NCBI GenBank assembly: GCA_026387405.1
Contig: JAPLLV010000025.1
Coordinates: 44,009-108,008 of the forward strand
Direction: 5' to 3'
DNA: 64,000 nucleotides
Origin: Candidatus Omnitrophota bacterium
GTDB lineage: Bacteria; Omnitrophota; Gorgyraeia; Gygaellales; Profunditerraquicolaceae
Below are positions 2,849-43,081 of the stretch, in pieces; position 1 is the stretch's first letter; every line of letters begins with the position of its first letter. A program made the position numbers and the translations under genes. The notes below the pieces were generated by a model that had not been told where the DNA came from, did no database searches, and worked only from the letters and a program-made list of their open reading frames with translations.

Positions 2849-4231
2849 ATGATCAAAAGCATATGTTTAGTTTTTCCGCGCTTTAAATATCCATCAGGGG
2901 ATCCGCCCTTAGGGCTCTGTTCTTTAGCCGCTTATCTGAGGGACAGATTAAAGGTGGAGGTTTCCATCTTGGATGCGACATTCCATCCTTCGCTTGATTA
3001 CGTATCGCAATATCTGAAATCCAAGAAACCAGAGCTGGTAGGAATTTATTTTTCTACCCTGATGTATGAAAAAGCAAGGCTTATCGCGCAGATTGCCAAA
3101 AAAACAGGAGCTATCGTGGTCGGGGGAGGCCCCCACGCTACCATAAGCCCTGAATCTGTTATTGATGACGTTGATATAACAGTGCTGGGTGAAGGGGAGG
3201 AGACCCTGCGCGAACTAGCCATGATTCTTCCCTCGTTAGACCTATCCCAGATCAAGGGGATCTGGTATAAAGACGGACAAGGCAATGTCCGCAAAACTCC
3301 CCCCAGGGATGTCATGGTAAATCTGGATTATATAGGTTTTCCCGCTCTGGACCTTGTTGAGATGGAGAGATATTTTTTGTACTGGCATTATCTTGATATC
3401 ATGACATTTAGTGCGCGAGGAATAAATATAATGTCCTCAAGAGGCTGTCCCTTTAGCTGCACCTTTTGTCAGCCCACCCTAAAAAAGCTTTTCGGTGATA
3501 AAGTGAGATACAAAAGTCCCGATTATTTGGCCGAAGAAATAACGTACTATATGCATACTTTTAATGTCAATATGTTCTTTTTCCATGATGATACTTTTGC
3601 CGCGGATAAAACCTGGGCGAATAGTTTTTTCGATATGCTGGAAAAAAGAAGACTAAATATCGTTTGGGGATGCAATACCCGGGTTAACAATATGGACGAG
3701 TCCATGATGCGCCGGATGTACGAAGTTGGCTGCCGTGTTATTCACTTTGGCATAGAGTCCGGCTCCCAGCGGGTCTTAGATGAGATTTACGCAAAAAGAA
3801 TTACTTTGGACCACGTAAACAAAGTAATTGAAATAGCCAAGAGAGTGGGAATGTATTCCTCGGGATTTTTTATACTAGGCGCTCCCGGAGAGACCAAGAT
3901 GGAGATGAACAAGACCATAAAACTCGCCCTTTCTTCAGGGCTCAATGAAGCCGCTTTTTCAATTGCCACCCCCCTCCCCGGAACGATGCTGTACGATATG
4001 ATTAAAAATGACAGAAATTTTACCATCAGCAAGGATTATTCCGACTTCGATTATTATAGAGGATTGTCCTATGCTGACCATAATTCTAGAAACAGACAAT
4101 TGATCCTTGCCCAACGCAAGGCCTTGTTTTTATTTTATCTCCATCCCCTGAGATTGCAATATATCCTCAGGCATTTTTTTAGCTTTAGAGGAATGGTTAA
4201 GCTTTATATTAAAATAAGAAGGTTTTTTTAG
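2849..4231 (+). CDS. cobalamin-binding (class B) radical SAM enzyme
   Basis: N-terminal B12-binding-like region (VVGGGPHATISPE), then CxxxCxxC (SSRGCPFSCTFCQP). Start placed at ATG 2849, directly after the upstream stop; the longer ORF in the track overlaps the previous gene. Confidence 0.8.
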   Translation: MIKSICLVFPRFKYPSGDPPLGLCSLAAYLRDRLKVEVSILDATFHPSLDYVSQYLKSKKPELVGIYFSTLMYEKARLIAQIAKKTGAIVVGGGPHATISPESVIDDVDITVLGEGEETLRELAMILPSLDLSQIKGIWYKDGQGNVRKTPPRDVMVNLDYIGFPALDLVEMERYFLYWHYLDIMTFSARGINIMSSRGCPFSCTFCQPTLKKLFGDKVRYKSPDYLAEEITYYMHTFNVNMFFFHDDTFAADKTWANSFFDMLEKRRLNIVWGCNTRVNNMDESMMRRMYEVGCRVIHFGIESGSQRVLDEIYAKRITLDHVNKVIEIAKRVGMYSSGFFILGAPGETKMEMNKTIKLALSSGLNEAAFSIATPLPGTMLYDMIKNDRNFTISKDYSDFDYYRGLSYADHNSRNRQLILAQRKALFLFYLHPLRLQYILRHFFSFRGMVKLYIKIRRFF

Positions 4232-5839: not shown

Positions 5840-7285
5840 ATGCGGATAGCCTTTATAAATTCTTGTTTAGGAGGAGACTTTAGTGCTATGGATATAGGTA
5901 TCACGTCCTTAGCCACGTACTTAAATGAAAGAACGGACCATAAAGCCGGTATCATAGATTTAACTTTTCATAGGAAGTCATGGAAAGAAGAACTAAGAAA
6001 AGAAATAGGAGAGAAAAAACCAGATATAATCGGGATTTCCTGTAACACGATGTATATGCAATATGTGAAAGCGATCATGGCGGAAGTGAAATCTAATTAC
6101 AGATTGCCTGTTATTCTGGGAGGACACCATGTTTCAATATACCCCGGAGAAACCATCGCCTTGCCTGAAGTTGACGCGGTATGCATAGGAGATGGAGAGG
6201 ATGCGCTTTGTGAATTTCTAGATCGTTTGTCTGCCGGGAAAAGTATCTCCGGTATCGCAGGCATCTGGGCAAAAGAGGATCGCAAAATCATAAAGAATGC
6301 GGTAGGTTGTTTTCGCCAGAATATCGATGATTTACCGATCCCGAATTGGGACCTCTGGAAAGACCTGGATAAATATTTTTATCATCTTGGGATGCTTTAT
6401 ATAATAGGAAGCAGGGGTTGTCCTTATAAATGCACCTTTTGCGATGCCCACGGAATTGCCGAGGTAGTCCGGGGTCGTTATTTTCGTAACCGGGACCCGG
6501 TAAAGTATGCGCAGGAGATCGGATACCAGTGGGAGAAATATAAGAATAGAGATTTGCGGCTCTTCCAGTTATTCGACCCGGTTTTCACGATGTCCCATGA
6601 TTGGGTGGCGGCATTTTGCGATGAATATAGAAGGCAAGGCTTACATAAGAAGATCAAATTCAGCGTATTTTCAAGGATAGACCATCTGGACGCGCAGAAA
6701 ATAAAAATATTGGCCCAATCAGGTTGCGGAATAGTCAGGGTTGGGGTCGAAGCCGGAGATGAATTTATCAGGCAGGAGATCTATCAAAAGAGAGTTTCTG
6801 ACGAGGATATCCGGAAGATATTCAGGTTATTGCACGATGCGAGGATTTGCATCACTGCTTATTACATATTAGGGGGGCCTTCCGAGTCACCCGGGACACT
6901 TCAGAAGACAATTGATTTGGCGCTGGAGCTTGACGCTGGACGGTCAGCCTTCTTTATATACAAACCTTTGACCAAAGAAGGTGTCAAACAGGTCTACGAT
7001 CTGGGCGGCTGGATTGACGGGTATAGATGGGGTAAGGCCGACAATATCACTTTTGACGCAGTTATTAATAATAAAGAGTTGACGCCGAAACAAGTCGAAT
7101 GGTATCAATTTAAGGCTTATTTTTTTACCTTTGTACGTAGGCTATTGCGGATTTTAAAAAGGCAGAAGCTGAGATATCTGATTTATCTCATTGTTTATCT
7201 GTATCGAGGGTTTAAATATGGCTTAAGTTTACCTTATATGGTTATTTATTACCACATCTACGGATATGATAATATAGATAAATAG
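5840..7285 (+). CDS. cobalamin-binding (class B) radical SAM enzyme
   Basis: B12-binding-like N-terminus (ILGGHHVSIYPGE); radical SAM cluster motif IGSRGCPYKCTFCDAHG. Confidence 0.8.
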   Translation: MRIAFINSCLGGDFSAMDIGITSLATYLNERTDHKAGIIDLTFHRKSWKEELRKEIGEKKPDIIGISCNTMYMQYVKAIMAEVKSNYRLPVILGGHHVSIYPGETIALPEVDAVCIGDGEDALCEFLDRLSAGKSISGIAGIWAKEDRKIIKNAVGCFRQNIDDLPIPNWDLWKDLDKYFYHLGMLYIIGSRGCPYKCTFCDAHGIAEVVRGRYFRNRDPVKYAQEIGYQWEKYKNRDLRLFQLFDPVFTMSHDWVAAFCDEYRRQGLHKKIKFSVFSRIDHLDAQKIKILAQSGCGIVRVGVEAGDEFIRQEIYQKRVSDEDIRKIFRLLHDARICITAYYILGGPSESPGTLQKTIDLALELDAGRSAFFIYKPLTKEGVKQVYDLGGWIDGYRWGKADNITFDAVINNKELTPKQVEWYQFKAYFFTFVRRLLRILKRQKLRYLIYLIVYLYRGFKYGLSLPYMVIYYHIYGYDNIDK

Positions 7286-35013: not shown

Positions 35014-36786
35014 ATGAATATTTTCTGCCAGCGAATTTTTAAAAATATATCAGGAATACATAAGGTTATTTTTGTCTTAGTTTTAATAGCCCTGTTGGTG
35101 CGAATCCCTCTTTCGTTGATTAGATATTTTGACCCGGATGAATTTGAACATTTGCATGCCGCGCGTAACATTTATCATGGGATGGTTCCATACAAGGATT
35201 ACTTTGACCATCACACGCCTTTTTTCCACGCCTTTCTTTCTGCATTTTATATTTTCTTAGCAGATAAAATACAATTGATCTTCTTGGCGCGCTTCTTCAT
35301 GATTTTATTTACTGGCGGCATATTATATATGACCTATCGCATTGCGAAATTATTATATGGCGTAAACATCGCTTTATATTCAGTAGTATTTCTTAGTTAC
35401 GTCGTAATGTTTCAGGAAAAAACCTTAGAGATCAGAACTGACTTGCCGGCAGTTATTTTCTTACTTTTGAGTATCTATTTGTTTATGTTGGGAATGCAAG
35501 ATCAAGATAAACACGAGAGAAAAAGACAAAGGGATCACTTCCTGATGTCCGGTGTTACAATCTCTTGCGCGCTTCTTACGAATCAAAAGATGTTTTTTGC
35601 CATTTTTGCGCTACTTCTTATGTGGATTTGGGTTCTTTTTAATGGACATAGAAAGTTGTCTTTAAAAGAATGGTCTGGTCCGATATTATGGTTTATATTT
35701 GGTTTTTTTATTCCTTTCGGTATAACATGCCTATACTTTTCATTAAGCAACGCGCTGAAAGAATTTATCTATAGGTGCTTCGTAATGAATATATTGTGGA
35801 AAACCCGGTTTTTACCTTATCAATATGTTGGACAACTAATAATACAAAATCCATTCTTCAGCGTGTTAAGTGCGTTGGGTTTGTTATTTTCTACCTTCGC
35901 AGTATTTAAGAAAAAAAAGATACCCGATTATTATTTTGTGCCGGTATTCGTTACCTATGCATTTATAATCGGACTTTTTATTATTCGTGTTCCGCAGCGT
36001 CAATATTACTTATTTTTTATCCCTTTGTTGGCAGTTTATTGTGGTTTTGCTTTCCAGACGTTTATTGGATATTTTTCTTTTCACAATATTAAGGAACAAT
36101 GGAATAAGCAAAATTACTTGTATTTTGGTTTGATGCCCGTATTTTTGATAATAGTTTTATTGATCCCCTCTATGGTTACTTCCATTAGAATATATGGCGT
36201 TTTTTCAACTCCAGACAATAAACCTTACTTGATTTATGTTTTGCTGGGTCTGGTATCCGTATTATTTCTTTCTGGTTTTGCATTTTTTAGAGGCAAAAAA
36301 CAATTCTTTGCATTAATGCTAATGGTTTGTTTTTTATACCTCCCCTTTATAGAAACGTGTACAGAATTTTTAAAAAAGGATTGGAGGTTAAAATGTTCCA
36401 ATGTAGATCAATTGGATGAAATCAGATTCATTCTTCGGAATACGAATCCACAGGATACTATTTTTGATGGATTTAGGGGGACCGGGGTTTTCCGTAACCA
36501 AGCGTATTACTATTTCTTTTTGCATGCTGAAATTCAGAAGATGTTAACGCCCAGGGAGTCTTCGACAGATATCGTGGCGGCGCTACGCAATATGAAGCCA
36601 AAATTTGTAATTTATGATTGGTGCGTGGGAAGTCTACCGGGAGAAGTGAGGGCTTATATTAATGATAATTATACGCCGGTTCGTAAGGGAGAGATTTATC
36701 TGTCTTCTGATGAGACTACGGTTGTGGAATGGCGTAAATTTAGAAGACCGATATTGTTTCGGCTGAATCCTCGGCCAGCGCAATAA
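35014..36786 (+). CDS. GT-C-fold membrane glycosyltransferase (ArnT/PMT_2-like)
   Basis: Polytopic protein; first-loop motif FDPDEFEHLHAARNIYHG, DE-type. Confidence 0.65.
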   Translation: MNIFCQRIFKNISGIHKVIFVLVLIALLVRIPLSLIRYFDPDEFEHLHAARNIYHGMVPYKDYFDHHTPFFHAFLSAFYIFLADKIQLIFLARFFMILFTGGILYMTYRIAKLLYGVNIALYSVVFLSYVVMFQEKTLEIRTDLPAVIFLLLSIYLFMLGMQDQDKHERKRQRDHFLMSGVTISCALLTNQKMFFAIFALLLMWIWVLFNGHRKLSLKEWSGPILWFIFGFFIPFGITCLYFSLSNALKEFIYRCFVMNILWKTRFLPYQYVGQLIIQNPFFSVLSALGLLFSTFAVFKKKKIPDYYFVPVFVTYAFIIGLFIIRVPQRQYYLFFIPLLAVYCGFAFQTFIGYFSFHNIKEQWNKQNYLYFGLMPVFLIIVLLIPSMVTSIRIYGVFSTPDNKPYLIYVLLGLVSVLFLSGFAFFRGKKQFFALMLMVCFLYLPFIETCTEFLKKDWRLKCSNVDQLDEIRFILRNTNPQDTIFDGFRGTGVFRNQAYYYFFLHAEIQKMLTPRESSTDIVAALRNMKPKFVIYDWCVGSLPGEVRAYINDNYTPVRKGEIYLSSDETTVVEWRKFRRPILFRLNPRPAQ

Positions 36787-36893
36787 AATACTTTTCTCTA
36801 GCTAGGTAATTGTTGTCATAATTTTGCCCCCGCGATTTTTTGGCTTGGGATAGAGAGTATCTCAAGCGTTCGCGCGCTTTTAGAAAAAGATAC

Positions 36894-36923
36894 TTGACAA
36901 CCCCAATTTATTGTGATAAAAGA
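36894..36923 (+). promoter_or_regulatory. putative sigma70-like promoter in front of the ATP-grasp/KamA operon leader
   Basis: TTGACA at 36894-36899 with an A/T-rich -10-like ATAAAA about 16-17 nt downstream. The -10 is weak. Confidence 0.3.
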
Positions 36924-36998
36924 AGAGCATAGGCACAATATTTAGGAGAAAACTTTAGGAGGAAGAACAAAAAATTGGCAAATTAAAGGATAGTTTTT

Positions 36999-37032
36999 AA
37001 GGGCTCTTGGAACAAATGAGCCCTTATTTTTT
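36999..37032 (+). terminator. intrinsic terminator / attenuator hairpin 19 nt upstream of the first ATP-grasp gene
   Basis: AAGGGCTC-ttggaacaaat-GAGCCCTT followed by ATTTTTT. Confidence 0.5.
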
Positions 37033-37050
37033 AGATGAGGCCGCAACTTT

Positions 37051-38040
37051 ATGAAAACCGTTGGATTAACCTACGATTTAAAGACAGATTACAAATTTAA
37101 AGAAGGCGATCCGCAGGATGCCAACGCGGAGTTCGACCATCCTTCGACTATCGGCGTTATTGCCAAGGCCATAGAGTCGCAGGGGTACAAGGTAAAGAAG
37201 ATCGGCAATGTCACGGATGTACTGGAAAAATTAGATAACCTGGGAGTGGATATCGTTTTCAATATTTCCGAGGGCCTCTCGGGCAGGAACCGCGAATCCC
37301 AGGTGCCGATCTTGCTAGAGATGGCCGGTGTTCCTTTTGTGGGCGCCGACGCGCTTACCCTTGGCCTTACGCTCGATAAGATCATGGCCAAAAAAATATT
37401 TATCGCCGAAAAACTACCTACCCCGAAATTCTTTACGGTCAATACCGTGGAAGAACTGAATAACGCCGACCATTGTAAATTCCCCCTTATTGTTAAACCG
37501 CGATTCGAGGGTTCTTCCAAGGGCTTAAGCGACAGCTCGCGCGTGGAGAATATGGAAGAGTTAAAGATACAGGTAGAGCATACAATCTCCACCTATAAAC
37601 AGCCTGCCCTGATAGAAGAGTTTATCTCCGGCCAGGAATTTACCGTGGCCGTGGTTGGTAATGATCCCCCCGAAGCCCTGCCCGTGGTCCAGATAAAGAT
37701 CGACGGCAAGTTACAGTTGAACGATAAATTCTATACCTTTGCCAGAATAAAATCAGACAGGCTGGAATATATCTGTCCTGCTAAGATCCCCACGGAACTG
37801 AAGAACAAGCTTCAGGATCTAGCCGTCAGGACATATAACGCGGTTGAGTGCCGTGATTTCGGGAGGGTGGATTTCAGGGTGGATAGCGACGGTAAACCTT
37901 TTGTCTTGGAGATCAACCCTTTGCCCTCGCTCTCTACCGAAGACGTGTTTATGCTCTTGGCCAAGACAATAGGGATCACCTACGAAGAGATGCTTGACAA
38001 GATCCTGAAGGCAGCCTTAAAAAGGCACAATCTTAATTAA
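37051..38040 (+). CDS. D-alanine-D-alanine ligase-family ATP-grasp enzyme (copy 1)
   Basis: Ddl-like layout: N-terminal domain, then LIVKPRFEGSSKGL, the ATP-grasp lysine/Gly-rich loop, and C-terminal LEINPLPSL. Confidence 0.7.
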   Translation: MKTVGLTYDLKTDYKFKEGDPQDANAEFDHPSTIGVIAKAIESQGYKVKKIGNVTDVLEKLDNLGVDIVFNISEGLSGRNRESQVPILLEMAGVPFVGADALTLGLTLDKIMAKKIFIAEKLPTPKFFTVNTVEELNNADHCKFPLIVKPRFEGSSKGLSDSSRVENMEELKIQVEHTISTYKQPALIEEFISGQEFTVAVVGNDPPEALPVVQIKIDGKLQLNDKFYTFARIKSDRLEYICPAKIPTELKNKLQDLAVRTYNAVECRDFGRVDFRVDSDGKPFVLEINPLPSLSTEDVFMLLAKTIGITYEEMLDKILKAALKRHNLN

Positions 38041-38049
38041 AGGTATTAA

Positions 38050-39057
38050 ATGAAGATCGCGCTTACCTTTAACCTTAAAAAGAAAGACTCAACCAAACCG
38101 GCGGATTATTTTTCCGAGTTTGATTCCGAAGAGACCGTTGATGCGATCCGGGGCGCCCTGTACAAAAAAGGCCACAGCGTGGACCTGGTCGAGGCGCATC
38201 AGCAAAACCTGTTTTCTTATTTCCGGGATAACCGCGTGGATATGGTTTTTAACATTGCCGAAGGCACTTGCGGCAGGTTCCGCGAATCGGAGATCCCGGC
38301 CATACTGGATTATCTGGAAGTGCCTTACACCGGCTCAGACACATTTTCCCTGGCCCTGGCCTTAAATAAGGCCCTGACCAAAAAGATACTGCAGGCGGAA
38401 AATATTCCCACCCCGCGTTTCCAACTTTTCACTAAAGGTAACGAAGAGTTAAACCCTGACTTGATCTTTCCTTTGATCGTCAAGCCTAATTGCGAAGGCT
38501 CGGCCAAAGGCATCAATGCCGCTAATGTGGTACGCGACGAGAGCGCGCTTTTTAGAAAAGCGCGGGAGATAATAAAGGTTTATAGACAGGAGGCGCTGGC
38601 CGAGGAGTTCATTGAAGGGAAAGAACTAACGGTGGGTATCCTGGAAAACGGCAAGACCACGATCCTGCCGATACTGGAGATCGATTTTTCAAGCTGCGAA
38701 GGGAGCGGAGAGTATTTTTATTCCTGGAGGATGAAGGAATATCAGGGTGACGAACAGCAGAGGCTCACGCCCACTTTTCACTGCCCGGCGCGCCTGGATA
38801 AGGATACTGAAAGGCGCGTAAAAGAGGTGGCACTCAAGACCCATCACGCGGTGGGATGTCTAGATATCTCCCGTACCGATATACGTTTAAGCCGCGATAA
38901 CATCCCGTATGTCCTTGAGATAAATCCTTTGCCCGGGCTCGATCCCAAGGAATCTAATCTTCCCCTCATGGCCTATGCCGCGGGCATGAAATACGAAGAC
39001 CTTATTGAAGCGATCCTTATAAGCGCTGCTAAGCGTAAGAAAGCGGGGCTCAATTGA
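38050..39057 (+). CDS. D-alanine-D-alanine ligase-family ATP-grasp enzyme (copy 2)
   Basis: Paralogue of the upstream gene (LIVKPNCEGSAKGI; LEINPLPGL). Separated from it by 9 nt. Confidence 0.7.
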   Translation: MKIALTFNLKKKDSTKPADYFSEFDSEETVDAIRGALYKKGHSVDLVEAHQQNLFSYFRDNRVDMVFNIAEGTCGRFRESEIPAILDYLEVPYTGSDTFSLALALNKALTKKILQAENIPTPRFQLFTKGNEELNPDLIFPLIVKPNCEGSAKGINAANVVRDESALFRKAREIIKVYRQEALAEEFIEGKELTVGILENGKTTILPILEIDFSSCEGSGEYFYSWRMKEYQGDEQQRLTPTFHCPARLDKDTERRVKEVALKTHHAVGCLDISRTDIRLSRDNIPYVLEINPLPGLDPKESNLPLMAYAAGMKYEDLIEAILISAAKRKKAGLN

Positions 39058-40232
39058 CGAACGCGACCATAACCGAGGTTCAAAAGCTCCAGCCTGATGC
39101 GCCTGTCCGTAGATCCCAGCGGGCTCGCGATTACCAGCAGATAAGCCTGTATAAAGACGTTAATCCCCTGGATTGGGAGGATTGGCACTGGCAGCTCAAA
39201 AATAGGATCTGCACCAAGGAAGACCTTGCCCAGGTGATAGTTTTGAGCCCCGAAGAGGAAGAGGGCTTAAAAAAGGCAAGCGGAAAACTTTCTTTGGCCA
39301 TTACCCCATATTGGGCGACTTTAATGGACCCCGAAGATCCCAATTGTCCTATCCGGCGCCAGGCCGTGCCTACGGTGTACGAAACGCTTGTCGGTCCCCA
39401 CGAAATGGTTGATCCTTGCGCCGAAGACAGGGATTCTCCCGCCCCGCACCTGGTGCACCGTTATCCGGACAGGGTCTTGCTCCTAGCTACCGAACATTGC
39501 GCGATGTATTGCCGCCACTGCACCAGAAGGCGCCTTGTGGGGGAGACCAATAAAGAGGATAACTCGCCTTCCCGTTTTGATGCGGCTTTAGAATATTTAA
39601 AAGCGAACAAAAAGGTGCGGGATGTTTTGATCTCCGGGGGCGACCCGCTTACCCTGGAAGATGACGTAATCGAGGATCTGCTGCGCAAGATCCGCGACAT
39701 ATCGCATATTGAGTTCTTAAGGCTGGGTACGCGCGTGCCGGTGACATTGCCGCAGCGCATCAATGAGAAATTGGTTACCATGCTTAAGAAATATAACCCG
39801 CTCTGGATGAGTATCCATTTTAACCACCCCAAGGAGATAACCAAACGTTCTAAGATCGCCTGCGAAATGCTGGCAGATGCCGGTATCCCGCTGGGGAGCC
39901 AGAGTGTGCTCTTAAAAGGCATTAATGACCGTCCTTATATTATGAAGAAGCTGGTGCATGATTTATTGCAGATAAGGGTGCGGCCGTATTATATTTATCA
40001 GTGCGATCCCGTCCGGGGCACGCAGCATTTCCGCACCCCGGTTGCCGTAGGCATCAACATTATGGAGAAGCTGCGCGGCCATACCTCGGGCTACGCCGTG
40101 CCTACCTATGTCATTGACGGCCCCGGCGGCGGCGGAAAAATCCCCGTAGGCCCCAATTATATCCTTTCGCAGGCCAAAGGTAAGTACGTGCTCCGCAATT
40201 ACAAGGGTAAGATCTACACTTATCTGGAATAA
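39054..40232 (+). CDS. kamA: lysine 2,3-aminomutase (KamA-family radical SAM)
   Basis: HRYPDRVLLLATEHCAMYCRHCTRRR matches the KamA CX3CX2C region. The C-terminal half is KamA-like. TTG start overlaps the upstream stop (TTGA). Confidence 0.8.
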   Translation: MTNATITEVQKLQPDAPVRRSQRARDYQQISLYKDVNPLDWEDWHWQLKNRICTKEDLAQVIVLSPEEEEGLKKASGKLSLAITPYWATLMDPEDPNCPIRRQAVPTVYETLVGPHEMVDPCAEDRDSPAPHLVHRYPDRVLLLATEHCAMYCRHCTRRRLVGETNKEDNSPSRFDAALEYLKANKKVRDVLISGGDPLTLEDDVIEDLLRKIRDISHIEFLRLGTRVPVTLPQRINEKLVTMLKKYNPLWMSIHFNHPKEITKRSKIACEMLADAGIPLGSQSVLLKGINDRPYIMKKLVHDLLQIRVRPYYIYQCDPVRGTQHFRTPVAVGINIMEKLRGHTSGYAVPTYVIDGPGGGGKIPVGPNYILSQAKGKYVLRNYKGKIYTYLE

Positions 40233-40242
40233 GTTTTTCCGC

Positions 40243-40271
40243 TTGACCCTCCCCAATGGTTGGTATATAAT
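40243..40271 (+). promoter_or_regulatory. sigma70-like promoter
   Basis: TTGACC at 40243-48, 17 nt spacer, TATAAT at 40266-71. About 115 nt upstream of the EF-G-like ATG, which has an AAGGAG SD. Confidence 0.5.
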
Positions 40272-40387
40272 CAAGAAAATCGCTTTCAGCGATCTTCGCG
40301 GTAGTATAGAAAGCTATATATTTTCCATACTATAATAATTTTAATACCCTTACCTATATATAGCCGCAAGAAAAGGAGCTAGCCGCT

Positions 40388-42379: not shown

Positions 42380-43081
42380 ATGAAGATAAGCGTATTTTCT
42401 ATCTCTACTCTTACGCCGGGGAAATATAATATCAAGGACCAGCGCCTTGACGCCGTGGACAAAATAGTCAAGGCCAAGAAAAAAACCTATGTGCAGGTGG
42501 AGGTGGTCGGAGCGGAAGCGGTATTCGAAGCAGACGCGCTTCTGGCGCTTGAAGATATGCGTTCGGACCTGATCCTAAGGGACCTGGAGTTCATAGAGAC
42601 GCGCCTCGGCCGTTGCGGCGATGAGAAGGAAAAAGGACTTTTGCTCAAACTTAAAGGGATCCTGGAGAAAGAGCAGTTTCTTTTTAGCGCCGGCTTGGGG
42701 GAAGAAGAAATCCAGTCCATGGCAAGCTATAGTTTGGTAACCTTAAAACCGGTTGTTATGGCCAGGCAGGAAGAGACGGATAACCCCAATGATCTATTGG
42801 CCAGGGCCCTCAGAGAAAGCGGGTATTTGAGTTTTTTTACCGCCGGGGAGAAAGAGACGCGCGCCTGGTTGATCAGAAAAGGGACTTCTGCCTGGGAGGC
42901 CGCGGGGGTAATACATTCAGATATCCAGAAAGGGTTTATCCGCGCCGAGATCATCGGTTACGATGATTATATTAATGCCGGCGGCGAGACTCCGGCCAAG
43001 CAGCAGGGGAAGATGCGCCTGGAGCAAAAAGAATATGTGATGCAGGATTGCGATCTGGCGAATTTTAGGTTTAACAAATAA
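42380..43081 (+). CDS. YchF/Ola1-like protein lacking the P-loop and most of the G domain (coiled-coil + TGS domains retained)
   Basis: C-terminus TRAWLIRKGTSAWEAAGVIHSDIQKGFIRAEII…GKMRLEQKEYVMQDCDLANFRFN aligns closely to the YchF TGS domain. The N-terminus starts after the position of the Walker A motif. About 50 aa around G3/G4 are also missing. Confidence 0.7.
   Translation: MKISVFSISTLTPGKYNIKDQRLDAVDKIVKAKKKTYVQVEVVGAEAVFEADALLALEDMRSDLILRDLEFIETRLGRCGDEKEKGLLLKLKGILEKEQFLFSAGLGEEEIQSMASYSLVTLKPVVMARQEETDNPNDLLARALRESGYLSFFTAGEKETRAWLIRKGTSAWEAAGVIHSDIQKGFIRAEIIGYDDYINAGGETPAKQQGKMRLEQKEYVMQDCDLANFRFNK

Follow-up and report, generated by a model that had tools for sequence, protein, structure and literature searches.

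How does transcription reach an operon whose first gene starts only 18 nucleotides (nt) past the end of a predicted intrinsic terminator? The question is raised by a stretch of DNA from a Candidatus Omnitrophota bacterium (contig JAPLLV010000025.1), here called the window, which is 64,000 nt long and whose numbering is used throughout, with features on the + strand unless stated otherwise. In it, an operon recognized with Pfam and NCBIfam at 37051-40232 encodes two ATP-grasp proteins (ATP-grasp 1, 37051-38040, and ATP-grasp 2, 38050-39057) and a KamA-type lysine 2,3-aminomutase (39054-40232). A preliminary description of the locus, made from its letters, had placed a candidate promoter at 36894 and a leader of roughly 100 nt behind it, ending in a hairpin and U-tract that transcription would have to read through, and had suggested that the leader is an attenuation or translational-coupling device or a small riboswitch. 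By comparing the locus with its relatives, we found that this leader belongs to a conserved cassette, and we propose that the cassette is a dedicated transcription attenuator of the ATP-grasp/ATP-grasp/KamA operon, most likely gated by a ribosome on a very short open reading frame (mini-ORF), a reading in which our confidence is evenly balanced.

A scan of one genome per species yielded 80 loci encoding the first ATP-grasp protein (75-82% identity), and the 160 nt located 5' of the ATP-grasp ATG were read across these loci. The cassette stands 5' of the orthologous gene in 77 of them, with remnants in the others, and the 77 genome copies form the leader alignment to which the conservation figures below refer. 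In metagenomes, a scan whose pattern consisted of the promoter and TTGRAAAA only returned 80 loci, of which 36 hold a true cassette, and the ATP-grasp gene follows in all 30 cases with enough downstream sequence. The element is laid out as cTTGACA, 14 nt, TRTG-n-TAAAAA, (A)TAgATACAATATTT and GGAGG in its 5' part, and from GGAGG onwards as 12-14 nt, TTGGAAAAA, about 15 nt and AAGGGCTC-loop-GAGCCCTT-ATTTTTT in its 3' part, measuring mostly 136-152 nt from the -35 element to the end of the T-run. Pairwise identity reaches 0.58 over the leader and 0.62 over the GGAGG...TTGGAAAAA core. Since the four-fold degenerate sites of the adjacent gene show an identity of 0.37 (0.27 being expected from composition), the higher value of the leader indicates that it is under selection.

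A profile search detected one cassette copy per locus and one in the 64-kb window, and no other copy, nor any GGAGG-N-TTG equivalent accompanied by a terminator, turned up in the window or across 0.7 Mb of locus sequence. The GGAGG-N-TTG motif as such occurred 71 times in leaders and 8 times elsewhere in the 0.7 Mb, with a terminator at none of the eight. Two loci that have lost the 5' third of the leader (L065 and L078) retain GGAGG, TTG and the hairpin. As judged from these comparisons, promoter, leader and terminator are one self-contained cassette, always located directly upstream of ATP-grasp 1, and the conservation of the predicted promoter, the leader and the hairpin is far beyond chance. 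Literature searches on the leader or the operon found no report, and there is no Rfam family either; the cassette, which extends across the phylum Omnitrophota, is apparently undescribed. A variation on its layout was seen in locus L060, where an insertion of about 140 nt (3640-3800 of that locus) separates the 5' part of the leader from the GGAGG core, the core and the terminator being intact.

The candidate promoter at 36894 was borne out by the alignment. The -35 hexamer TTGACA (36894-36899) is invariant in 77 of 77 loci, and so are the 17-nt spacer, seen in the window too, and the TG motif that a single base separates from the -10 hexamer. In the window the extended -10 region, delimited by sequence conservation, covers 36912-36922 and consists of a TRTG motif (TGTG, 36912-36915, starting 14 nt past TTGACA), one base and the hexamer TAAAAG (36917-36922), for which the consensus across loci is TAAAAA. 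The T, TG and TAAAA of this region keep a fixed spacing and are either invariant or conserved to 90% or more, and an A-rich UP-like sequence lies 5' of the -35 hexamer in many loci. The final T of the -10 hexamer is missing in all loci, and the combination of A2 and T6 that marks a sigma-70 -10 element is thus absent. The prediction of a sigma-70-type promoter with an extended -10 at 36894-36922 is consequently based on the -35 hexamer, the spacing and the TG motif. The lack of the final T in the second hexamer is also the reason why a consensus promoter scan omitted the leader promoter; a canonical TATAAT-type promoter is present elsewhere in the window. From the promoter geometry, transcription is predicted to start at the A at 36929, 7 nt past the -10 hexamer, and the terminated RNA would then be about 104-105 nt long (36929-37032).

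The -10 hexamer and the predicted start are flanked by a conserved 7-bp inverted repeat (36909-36940), made of TATTGTG in the promoter spacer (36909-36915) and CACAATA at about +6 to +12 of the RNA (36934-36940). Of its aligned cells 80% are paired, and G-C to A-T double changes occur in 9 sequences. The TRTG motif shares bases with its 5' arm, and some lineages lack the repeat, which is a faint candidate for an operator. Its interpretation as an RNA helix was rejected, the 5' arm being upstream of the predicted start and the covariation coming mostly from one clade. A second promoter within the leader (TTGGAA with a -10 in the hairpin, or sigma-54 and sigma-28 patterns) was also considered and rejected, because its elements are too variably spaced and its -10-like bases unconserved.

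The leader ends, as described earlier, in a hairpin and U-tract, and the comparative alignment that the preliminary description had called for showed both to be conserved. By folding and conservation, the predicted intrinsic terminator of the window (36998-37032) comprises a stem (36998-37006 paired with 37018-37026), an 11-nt loop and a U-tract (37027-37032). The window hairpin has 9 pairs and a free energy of -14.6 kcal/mol, with a z-score of -3.1 against dinucleotide shuffles (n=200), only 1 of the 200 shuffles being equally stable, and is followed by UUUUUU. Over the 77 loci the means are -13.4 kcal/mol and about 10 pairs, the median loop is 8 nt, and 4-9 U are found within the 9 nt after the stem. 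The arms GGGCUC and GRGCCC and the U-tract are at least 90% conserved, and 90% of the aligned cells are paired. U-A, U.G and C-G exchange at one pair; the U-A to U.G exchanges fit a hairpin that acts as RNA on the + strand, and covariation is otherwise limited because most positions are conserved in sequence. The element therefore combines a G+C-rich stem and a U-tract with pairing that is kept in relatives, as an intrinsic terminator does. A terminator scan had missed the window hairpin because its loop limit was 8 nt. We also noted that the 5' arm and loop of the hairpin (37002-37015, GCUCUUGGAACAA) resemble the boxA of E. coli (GCUCUUUAACAA). A boxA-like GCUCUUUAAUAU is found in one clade, and the resemblance is not conserved in the main clade.

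The position of the hairpin bears directly on how the operon is transcribed. In the window the U-tract ends 18 nt before the ATP-grasp ATG at 37051, and elsewhere the gap between U-tract and ATG measures 0-186 nt at genome loci and reaches 272 nt on metagenome contigs; its most frequent length is 8 nt, and in 36 of 78 loci it does not exceed 12 nt. A promoter inside this gap is ruled out where it measures 0-12 nt. Because such short gaps leave no room for a promoter, the operon would be fed by read-through, and its transcription must, as we read the layout, pass the predicted terminator. The requirement for read-through contained in the preliminary description is thus upheld, the more so as the cassette is tied to the operon whatever lies upstream. 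Indeed, at least nine unrelated gene families supply the closest upstream neighbour, which may lie on either strand; among these families are an uncharacterised one of about 245 amino acids (aa), one of about 210 aa, GT2 glycosyltransferases, an opposite-strand O-antigen-ligase-like protein and the PMT-type glycosyltransferase of the window. Downstream, the order ATP-grasp 1, ATP-grasp 2 and KamA is kept in every locus long enough, usually followed by an EF-G or YchF-like gene. The combination of a variable upstream gene and a constant downstream operon argues that the hairpin is neither the terminator of an upstream gene nor a free-standing gene placed there by chance.

What, then, decides between termination and read-through? 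With Rfam, no match to the leader was obtained at the gathering threshold for the window and seven related loci, and at a permissive E (E ≤ 10 or E ≤ 5) the leaders of three loci (the window, L040 and L051) returned noise only. RNAalifold, run on the 77 sequences, predicted the terminator as the sole helix, and a mutual-information scan of 109 distinct sequences detected no second one. Folding with the 3' arm removed produced no conserved antiterminator. The native sequence upstream of the hairpin was less stable than its shuffled counterparts (-9.2 versus -10.4 kcal/mol) and did not pair more often than they did with the 5' arm of the hairpin. Features of the trp type were also lacking in the leader, with neither tandem regulatory codons nor mutually exclusive 2:3 and 3:4 structures. 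Because no fold is conserved besides the terminator, an RNA switch probably does not make the decision. Two checks proposed in the preliminary description, a folding search for an alternative antiterminator and a covariance-model search of Rfam, therefore gave nothing in favour of the riboswitch it had envisaged.

What is conserved between the promoter and the terminator is a pair of short motifs. A Shine-Dalgarno-like GGAGG (36958-36962) is present, as GGAGG or as the variants GGGGG and GGAGA, in 77 of 77 loci, and the window has a second AGGAG (36944-36948) that stems from a local duplication. It is followed by a conserved UUG and A-rich sequence, located by alignment at 36975-36986 in the window, where it forms the mini-ORF TTG GCA AAT TAA (M-A-N-stop). 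The distance from GGAGG to TTG is 12-14 nt in 72 of the 77 loci, and that from TTG to the GGGCUC arm of the hairpin is 23-28 nt. The invariant GGAGG of the leader stands out because Shine-Dalgarno sequences are used very rarely in these genomes: GGAGG is found 5-6 nt upstream of 2 of 52 window genes, and before a handful of genes among about 700 ORFs.

Read as a start codon, the UUG opens frames with recurrent features. The triplet at this position is TTG in 75 loci and GTG in the other 2, and the ORF that it opens is 1-35 codons long. The peptide reads MEKIG at 30 loci and MEK or MKK at a further 15, that of the window being MAN. Of the 77 loci, 50 have a frame-0 stop 0-14 nt ahead of the stem, as against 13 for each other frame, although these counts are inflated by kinship, 30 loci sharing the peptide MEKIG. 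In 26 loci the frame-0 stop is inside or past the hairpin, and in 6 loci the ORF runs through the hairpin to stop on the ATGA of the gene. A stop at codon 6 is maintained by three sequences (GGA-TAG, GGA-TGA and GAT-TGA). A Lys codon occupies codon 2 or 3 in about 71 of the 77 loci, and 5 loci, the window among them, have no Lys codon.

The mechanism that we infer from the sequence takes the conservation of the cassette, its linkage to the operon and the lack of an alternative fold as its basis, and concerns the start of transcription, its termination, translation of the mini-ORF and the direction of control. The conserved promoter would start the RNA near 36929, and the hairpin and U-tract at 36998-37032, about 100 nt further on, would stop most transcripts. 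Only read-through transcripts would reach the operon, for which there is no other consistent promoter. The sensor would be the single-stranded GGAGG together with the UUG and its A-rich codons, at the conserved distances from each other and from the hairpin, and it would be bound by a trans-acting factor. We consider the ribosome to be the most economical factor because the one general partner of GGAGG is the 3' end of 16S rRNA, and we favour it because the conserved triplet that comes next is in every case a start codon, A-rich codons follow it, and a stop usually lies shortly ahead of the hairpin. A ribosome loading at the Shine-Dalgarno-like site would translate a mini-ORF of 1 to 7 codons (M-A-N-stop in the window) and would end at, or enter, the 5' arm of the hairpin, thereby hindering formation of the terminator. 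Opening of the hairpin would also free the start of the first gene, about 8 nt past the U-tract in most loci; with this start placed right after the U-tract, melting of the hairpin would aid translation as well. Operon output would then follow translational capacity and possibly, through the Lys codons at positions 2 or 3, charged Lys-tRNA too. A bolder version, which we put forward tentatively and think less probable than not, is that the cassette represents a new class of attenuator operating without an RNA switch, in which a ribosome or a free 30S subunit, drawn to the UUG mini-ORF by one of the phylum's very few strong Shine-Dalgarno sequences, decides passage of the terminator and the terminated leader may persist as an abundant small RNA.

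Several observations weigh against a ribosome as the gating factor. The 12-14 nt between GGAGG and TTG exceed the 5-10 nt seen at the few genes led by GGAGG, and the start of the mini-ORF is never ATG. The ORF varies from 1 to 35 codons and its peptide is unconserved, and three-codon ORFs such as that of the window stop about 11 nt before the stem, which a terminating ribosome would barely reach. The enrichment of stops ahead of the stem is in part a product of relatedness, given the 30 MEKIG loci. The predicted accessibility of GGAGG and TTG in the folded leader was not above that in shuffled contexts. Finally, the terminator stem is conserved in its very sequence, a constraint that control by ribosomes alone would not call for but that agrees with protein recognition or with a stable small RNA.

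These last two possibilities are the main rivals. The terminated RNA of about 105 nt could be a trans-acting small regulatory RNA, with the operon using the leak of its terminator. This would account for a -35 hexamer of perfect consensus and for a promoter conserved as much as the RNA, for a stem conserved in sequence beyond what pairing alone demands, and for an RNA body that is unstructured and rich in purines and A. GGA motifs are also enriched in it, at a mean of 3.05 per leader compared with 1.3 expected. However, the cassette is linked solely to one operon, in the same orientation in 107 of 107 loci and with a modal gap of 8 nt, which speaks for a role in cis, and in some lineages the RNA can do without its 5' third. 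The GGA motifs range from 1 to 6 per leader, with only one in 8 leaders, and do not sit in conserved loops; despite the enrichment, neither their count nor their positions are conserved, and the fit to a CsrA-type sponge is poor. We hold a trans-acting small RNA to be unlikely, noting that this role and that of a cis attenuator are compatible with each other. A trans-acting RNA-binding protein that recognises GGAGG...UUGGAAAAA, the hairpin or both, and promotes or prevents termination, would explain why unstructured motifs are conserved in sequence at fixed distances from the hairpin, why the stem sequence is conserved and why the spacing from GGAGG to TTG is too long for a standard ribosome-binding site. 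The main clade, moreover, carries TTGGA-like repeats about 11 and 15 nt apart. Yet these repeats are unconserved outside that one clade, no candidate regulator gene is linked to the cassette, and a protein would not predict that the start triplet varies between TTG and GTG only or that stops are specific to one frame. A protein of this kind is a minor possibility in our estimation.

The remaining explanations are far less probable. A small riboswitch for lysine, beta-lysine or another metabolite, with a fold that our searches missed, would suit the position of the leader upstream of an amino-acid-modifying operon, with the terminator as expression platform, and very small aptamers overlapping terminators have precedents. 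The absence of any Rfam match even at E ≤ 10, of conserved helices and covarying pairs other than those of the terminator among 77-109 sequences, and of upstream folding or pairing with the 5' arm beyond the level of shuffled sequence makes such a riboswitch very improbable. Still slimmer is the chance that translation or attenuation is coupled through a 12-codon upstream ORF (uORF) that starts within the hairpin, as is detailed below. That the hairpin simply terminates the upstream glycosyltransferase gene, or arose by chance, is a reading to which we give almost no weight. The hairpin does lie downstream of a + strand gene, ending at 36786, but it is 212 nt from the stop of that gene with a conserved promoter between them, and the cassette stays by the ATP-grasp gene even where another gene family, or a gene of opposite orientation, is found upstream. 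Ownership by the upstream gene, against which the preliminary description had cautioned, is thus contradicted.

The preliminary description had drawn particular attention to the 12-codon uORF (MSPYFLDEAATL), which runs from the ATG at 37016 to the TGA at 37052-37054 and whose stop overlaps the start of the ATP-grasp gene as ATGA. Both the ORF and the overlap exist in the window, but they lie outside the conserved element and are not conserved even at 95% identity. In locus L083, whose ATP-grasp protein is 95% identical, the leader is near-identical through the terminator and is then followed by about 120 nt of extra palindromic sequence, and the ORF starting in the hairpin loop stops far from the ATG; in two other close relatives, L085 and L086, the arrangement is different once more. 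Across loci the gap to the ATG measures anything from 0 to 272 nt, and no ribosome-binding motif precedes the ATG at 37016. The 3' half of the uORF lies in the remnant of a repeat: comparison with relatives identified the variable spacer at 37033-37050, which supplies its last codons, as the truncated left arm of a palindromic repeat (AGATGAGGCCGCAACTTT). The ATGA overlap, for its part, follows from the conserved Met-Lys start of the protein. We conclude from these comparisons that the uORF and its overlap are not beyond chance and are a local accident of the repeat. A dedicated attenuator remains the best reading of the device suggested earlier, but the version based on coupling through this uORF is rejected.

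The repeat recurs at the same place in other loci. The repeat family comes directly after the U-tract in at least nine loci; L083 (2860-3000), L086, L059, L019, L024, L082 and others have its full form, and L068 carries the same truncated arm as the window. The family has the form AATGAG[GC][GC]CAYAACTTAYGGA ... inverted copy, often with a second long hairpin closed by ATCCCG/CGGGAT. Other loci have unrelated palindromic inserts at this site, and the longer gaps between U-tract and ATG are filled by assorted palindromic repeats. The repeat was also considered as a dispersed element, an idea that was dropped because the window has no other copy. A plausible uORF with an ATGA overlap can evidently arise by accident of repeat insertion.

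A ribosome acting beside a leader terminator has known counterparts. The ampC attenuator of E. coli provides growth-rate control through ribosome binding beside the terminator, and in the pyrE and pyrBI attenuators a ribosome trailing RNA polymerase to the edge of the terminator suppresses termination. The cassette shares with ampC and pyrE a single terminator hairpin in the leader, the lack of an antiterminator helix and the need for read-through into the downstream genes, together with a Shine-Dalgarno-like site, a candidate start codon and a very short ORF that ends before the hairpin or enters it. It differs in having no sequence relationship to them, in a UUG start lying 12-14 nt from GGAGG, in the conservation of the stem sequence and in a host phylum that rarely uses Shine-Dalgarno sites.

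Other systems resemble the cassette in fewer respects. As in the trp, his and leu attenuators, there is a leader ORF and a terminator, and charged tRNA might be sensed through the Lys codons; unlike them, the cassette has no 2:3 antiterminator, no run of regulatory codons and an ORF of variable length, and its operon consumes lysine and does not make it. Like the lysine riboswitch (RF00168), it precedes a lysine-related operon and has a terminator as output, whereas it shows neither the Rfam model match nor the aptamer fold of that or other riboswitches. Like Csr/Rsm sponge RNAs, its RNA would be short, with several GGA motifs, an intrinsic terminator and a conserved strong promoter; unlike in those RNAs, the GGA motifs vary in number, down to one in some leaders, and lie outside hairpin loops, and the linkage in cis is strict. 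The vmlR leader of Bacillus subtilis has a Met-Ile-Asn uORF before an intrinsic terminator (PMC9226507). Leaders of this resistance type have in common with the cassette a tripeptide-scale uORF with its own Shine-Dalgarno site 5' of an intrinsic terminator; they form several alternative stem-loops, however, none of which is conserved in the cassette, and the genes downstream of the cassette are biosynthetic and do not confer resistance.

The operon itself is strongly conserved. The first ATP-grasp protein is annotated solely in metagenome-assembled genomes of Candidatus Omnitrophota, where it has hundreds of relatives at about 80% identity, and the proteins of the trio are about 75-85% identical across Omnitrophota, with synonymous sites near saturation. 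Both ATP-grasp proteins are D-Ala-D-Ala-ligase-like: their PDB matches are D-Ala-D-Ala ligases, and their scores are under the cutoffs for that enzyme. KamA is closest to AblA, scoring 515 bits on the lysine 2,3-aminomutase AblA model, for which the cutoff is 525.

Several observations concern the genes on either side. Upstream, the neighbour in the window is a PMT-family glycosyltransferase gene on the + strand, and between its stop and the leader promoter (36843-36882) a 10-bp hairpin (36843-36867) precedes a short GC hairpin with TTTT, the whole being possibly the terminator of this gene. Downstream, the EF-G gene of the window has its own promoter-like site, TTGACC...TATATAAT, at about 40243-40272. 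In L083 the region between KamA and the next gene (6370-6446 of that locus) matches the c-di-GMP-I-GGC riboswitch of Rfam with 61 bits (gathering score 59); the equivalent gap in the window (40233-40387) has no c-di-GMP-I-GGC match and holds the TTGACC...TATATAAT site instead. Further on, an ORF of 233 aa (42380-43081) matches YchF over the C-terminal third of the profile only (positions 275-367 of 368), a short form that recurs 3' of KamA in 21 loci.

The Omnitrophota are widespread, uncultured and very small bacteria, and to our knowledge almost nothing is known of their gene regulation. The cassette is among their most conserved non-coding sequences and lies beside one of the most conserved operons of the phylum, which singles out the ATP-grasp/ATP-grasp/KamA operon as one under tight control and of probable importance. 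It can serve as a test case for control at a terminator that involves no alternative RNA fold, in bacteria where Shine-Dalgarno sites are seldom used, and the ratio of reads before and after the U-tract gives a handle for metatranscriptome analysis. If the decision is indeed made by a ribosome or a 30S subunit on the mini-ORF, the expression of a near-universal Omnitrophota operon would be tied to translational capacity.

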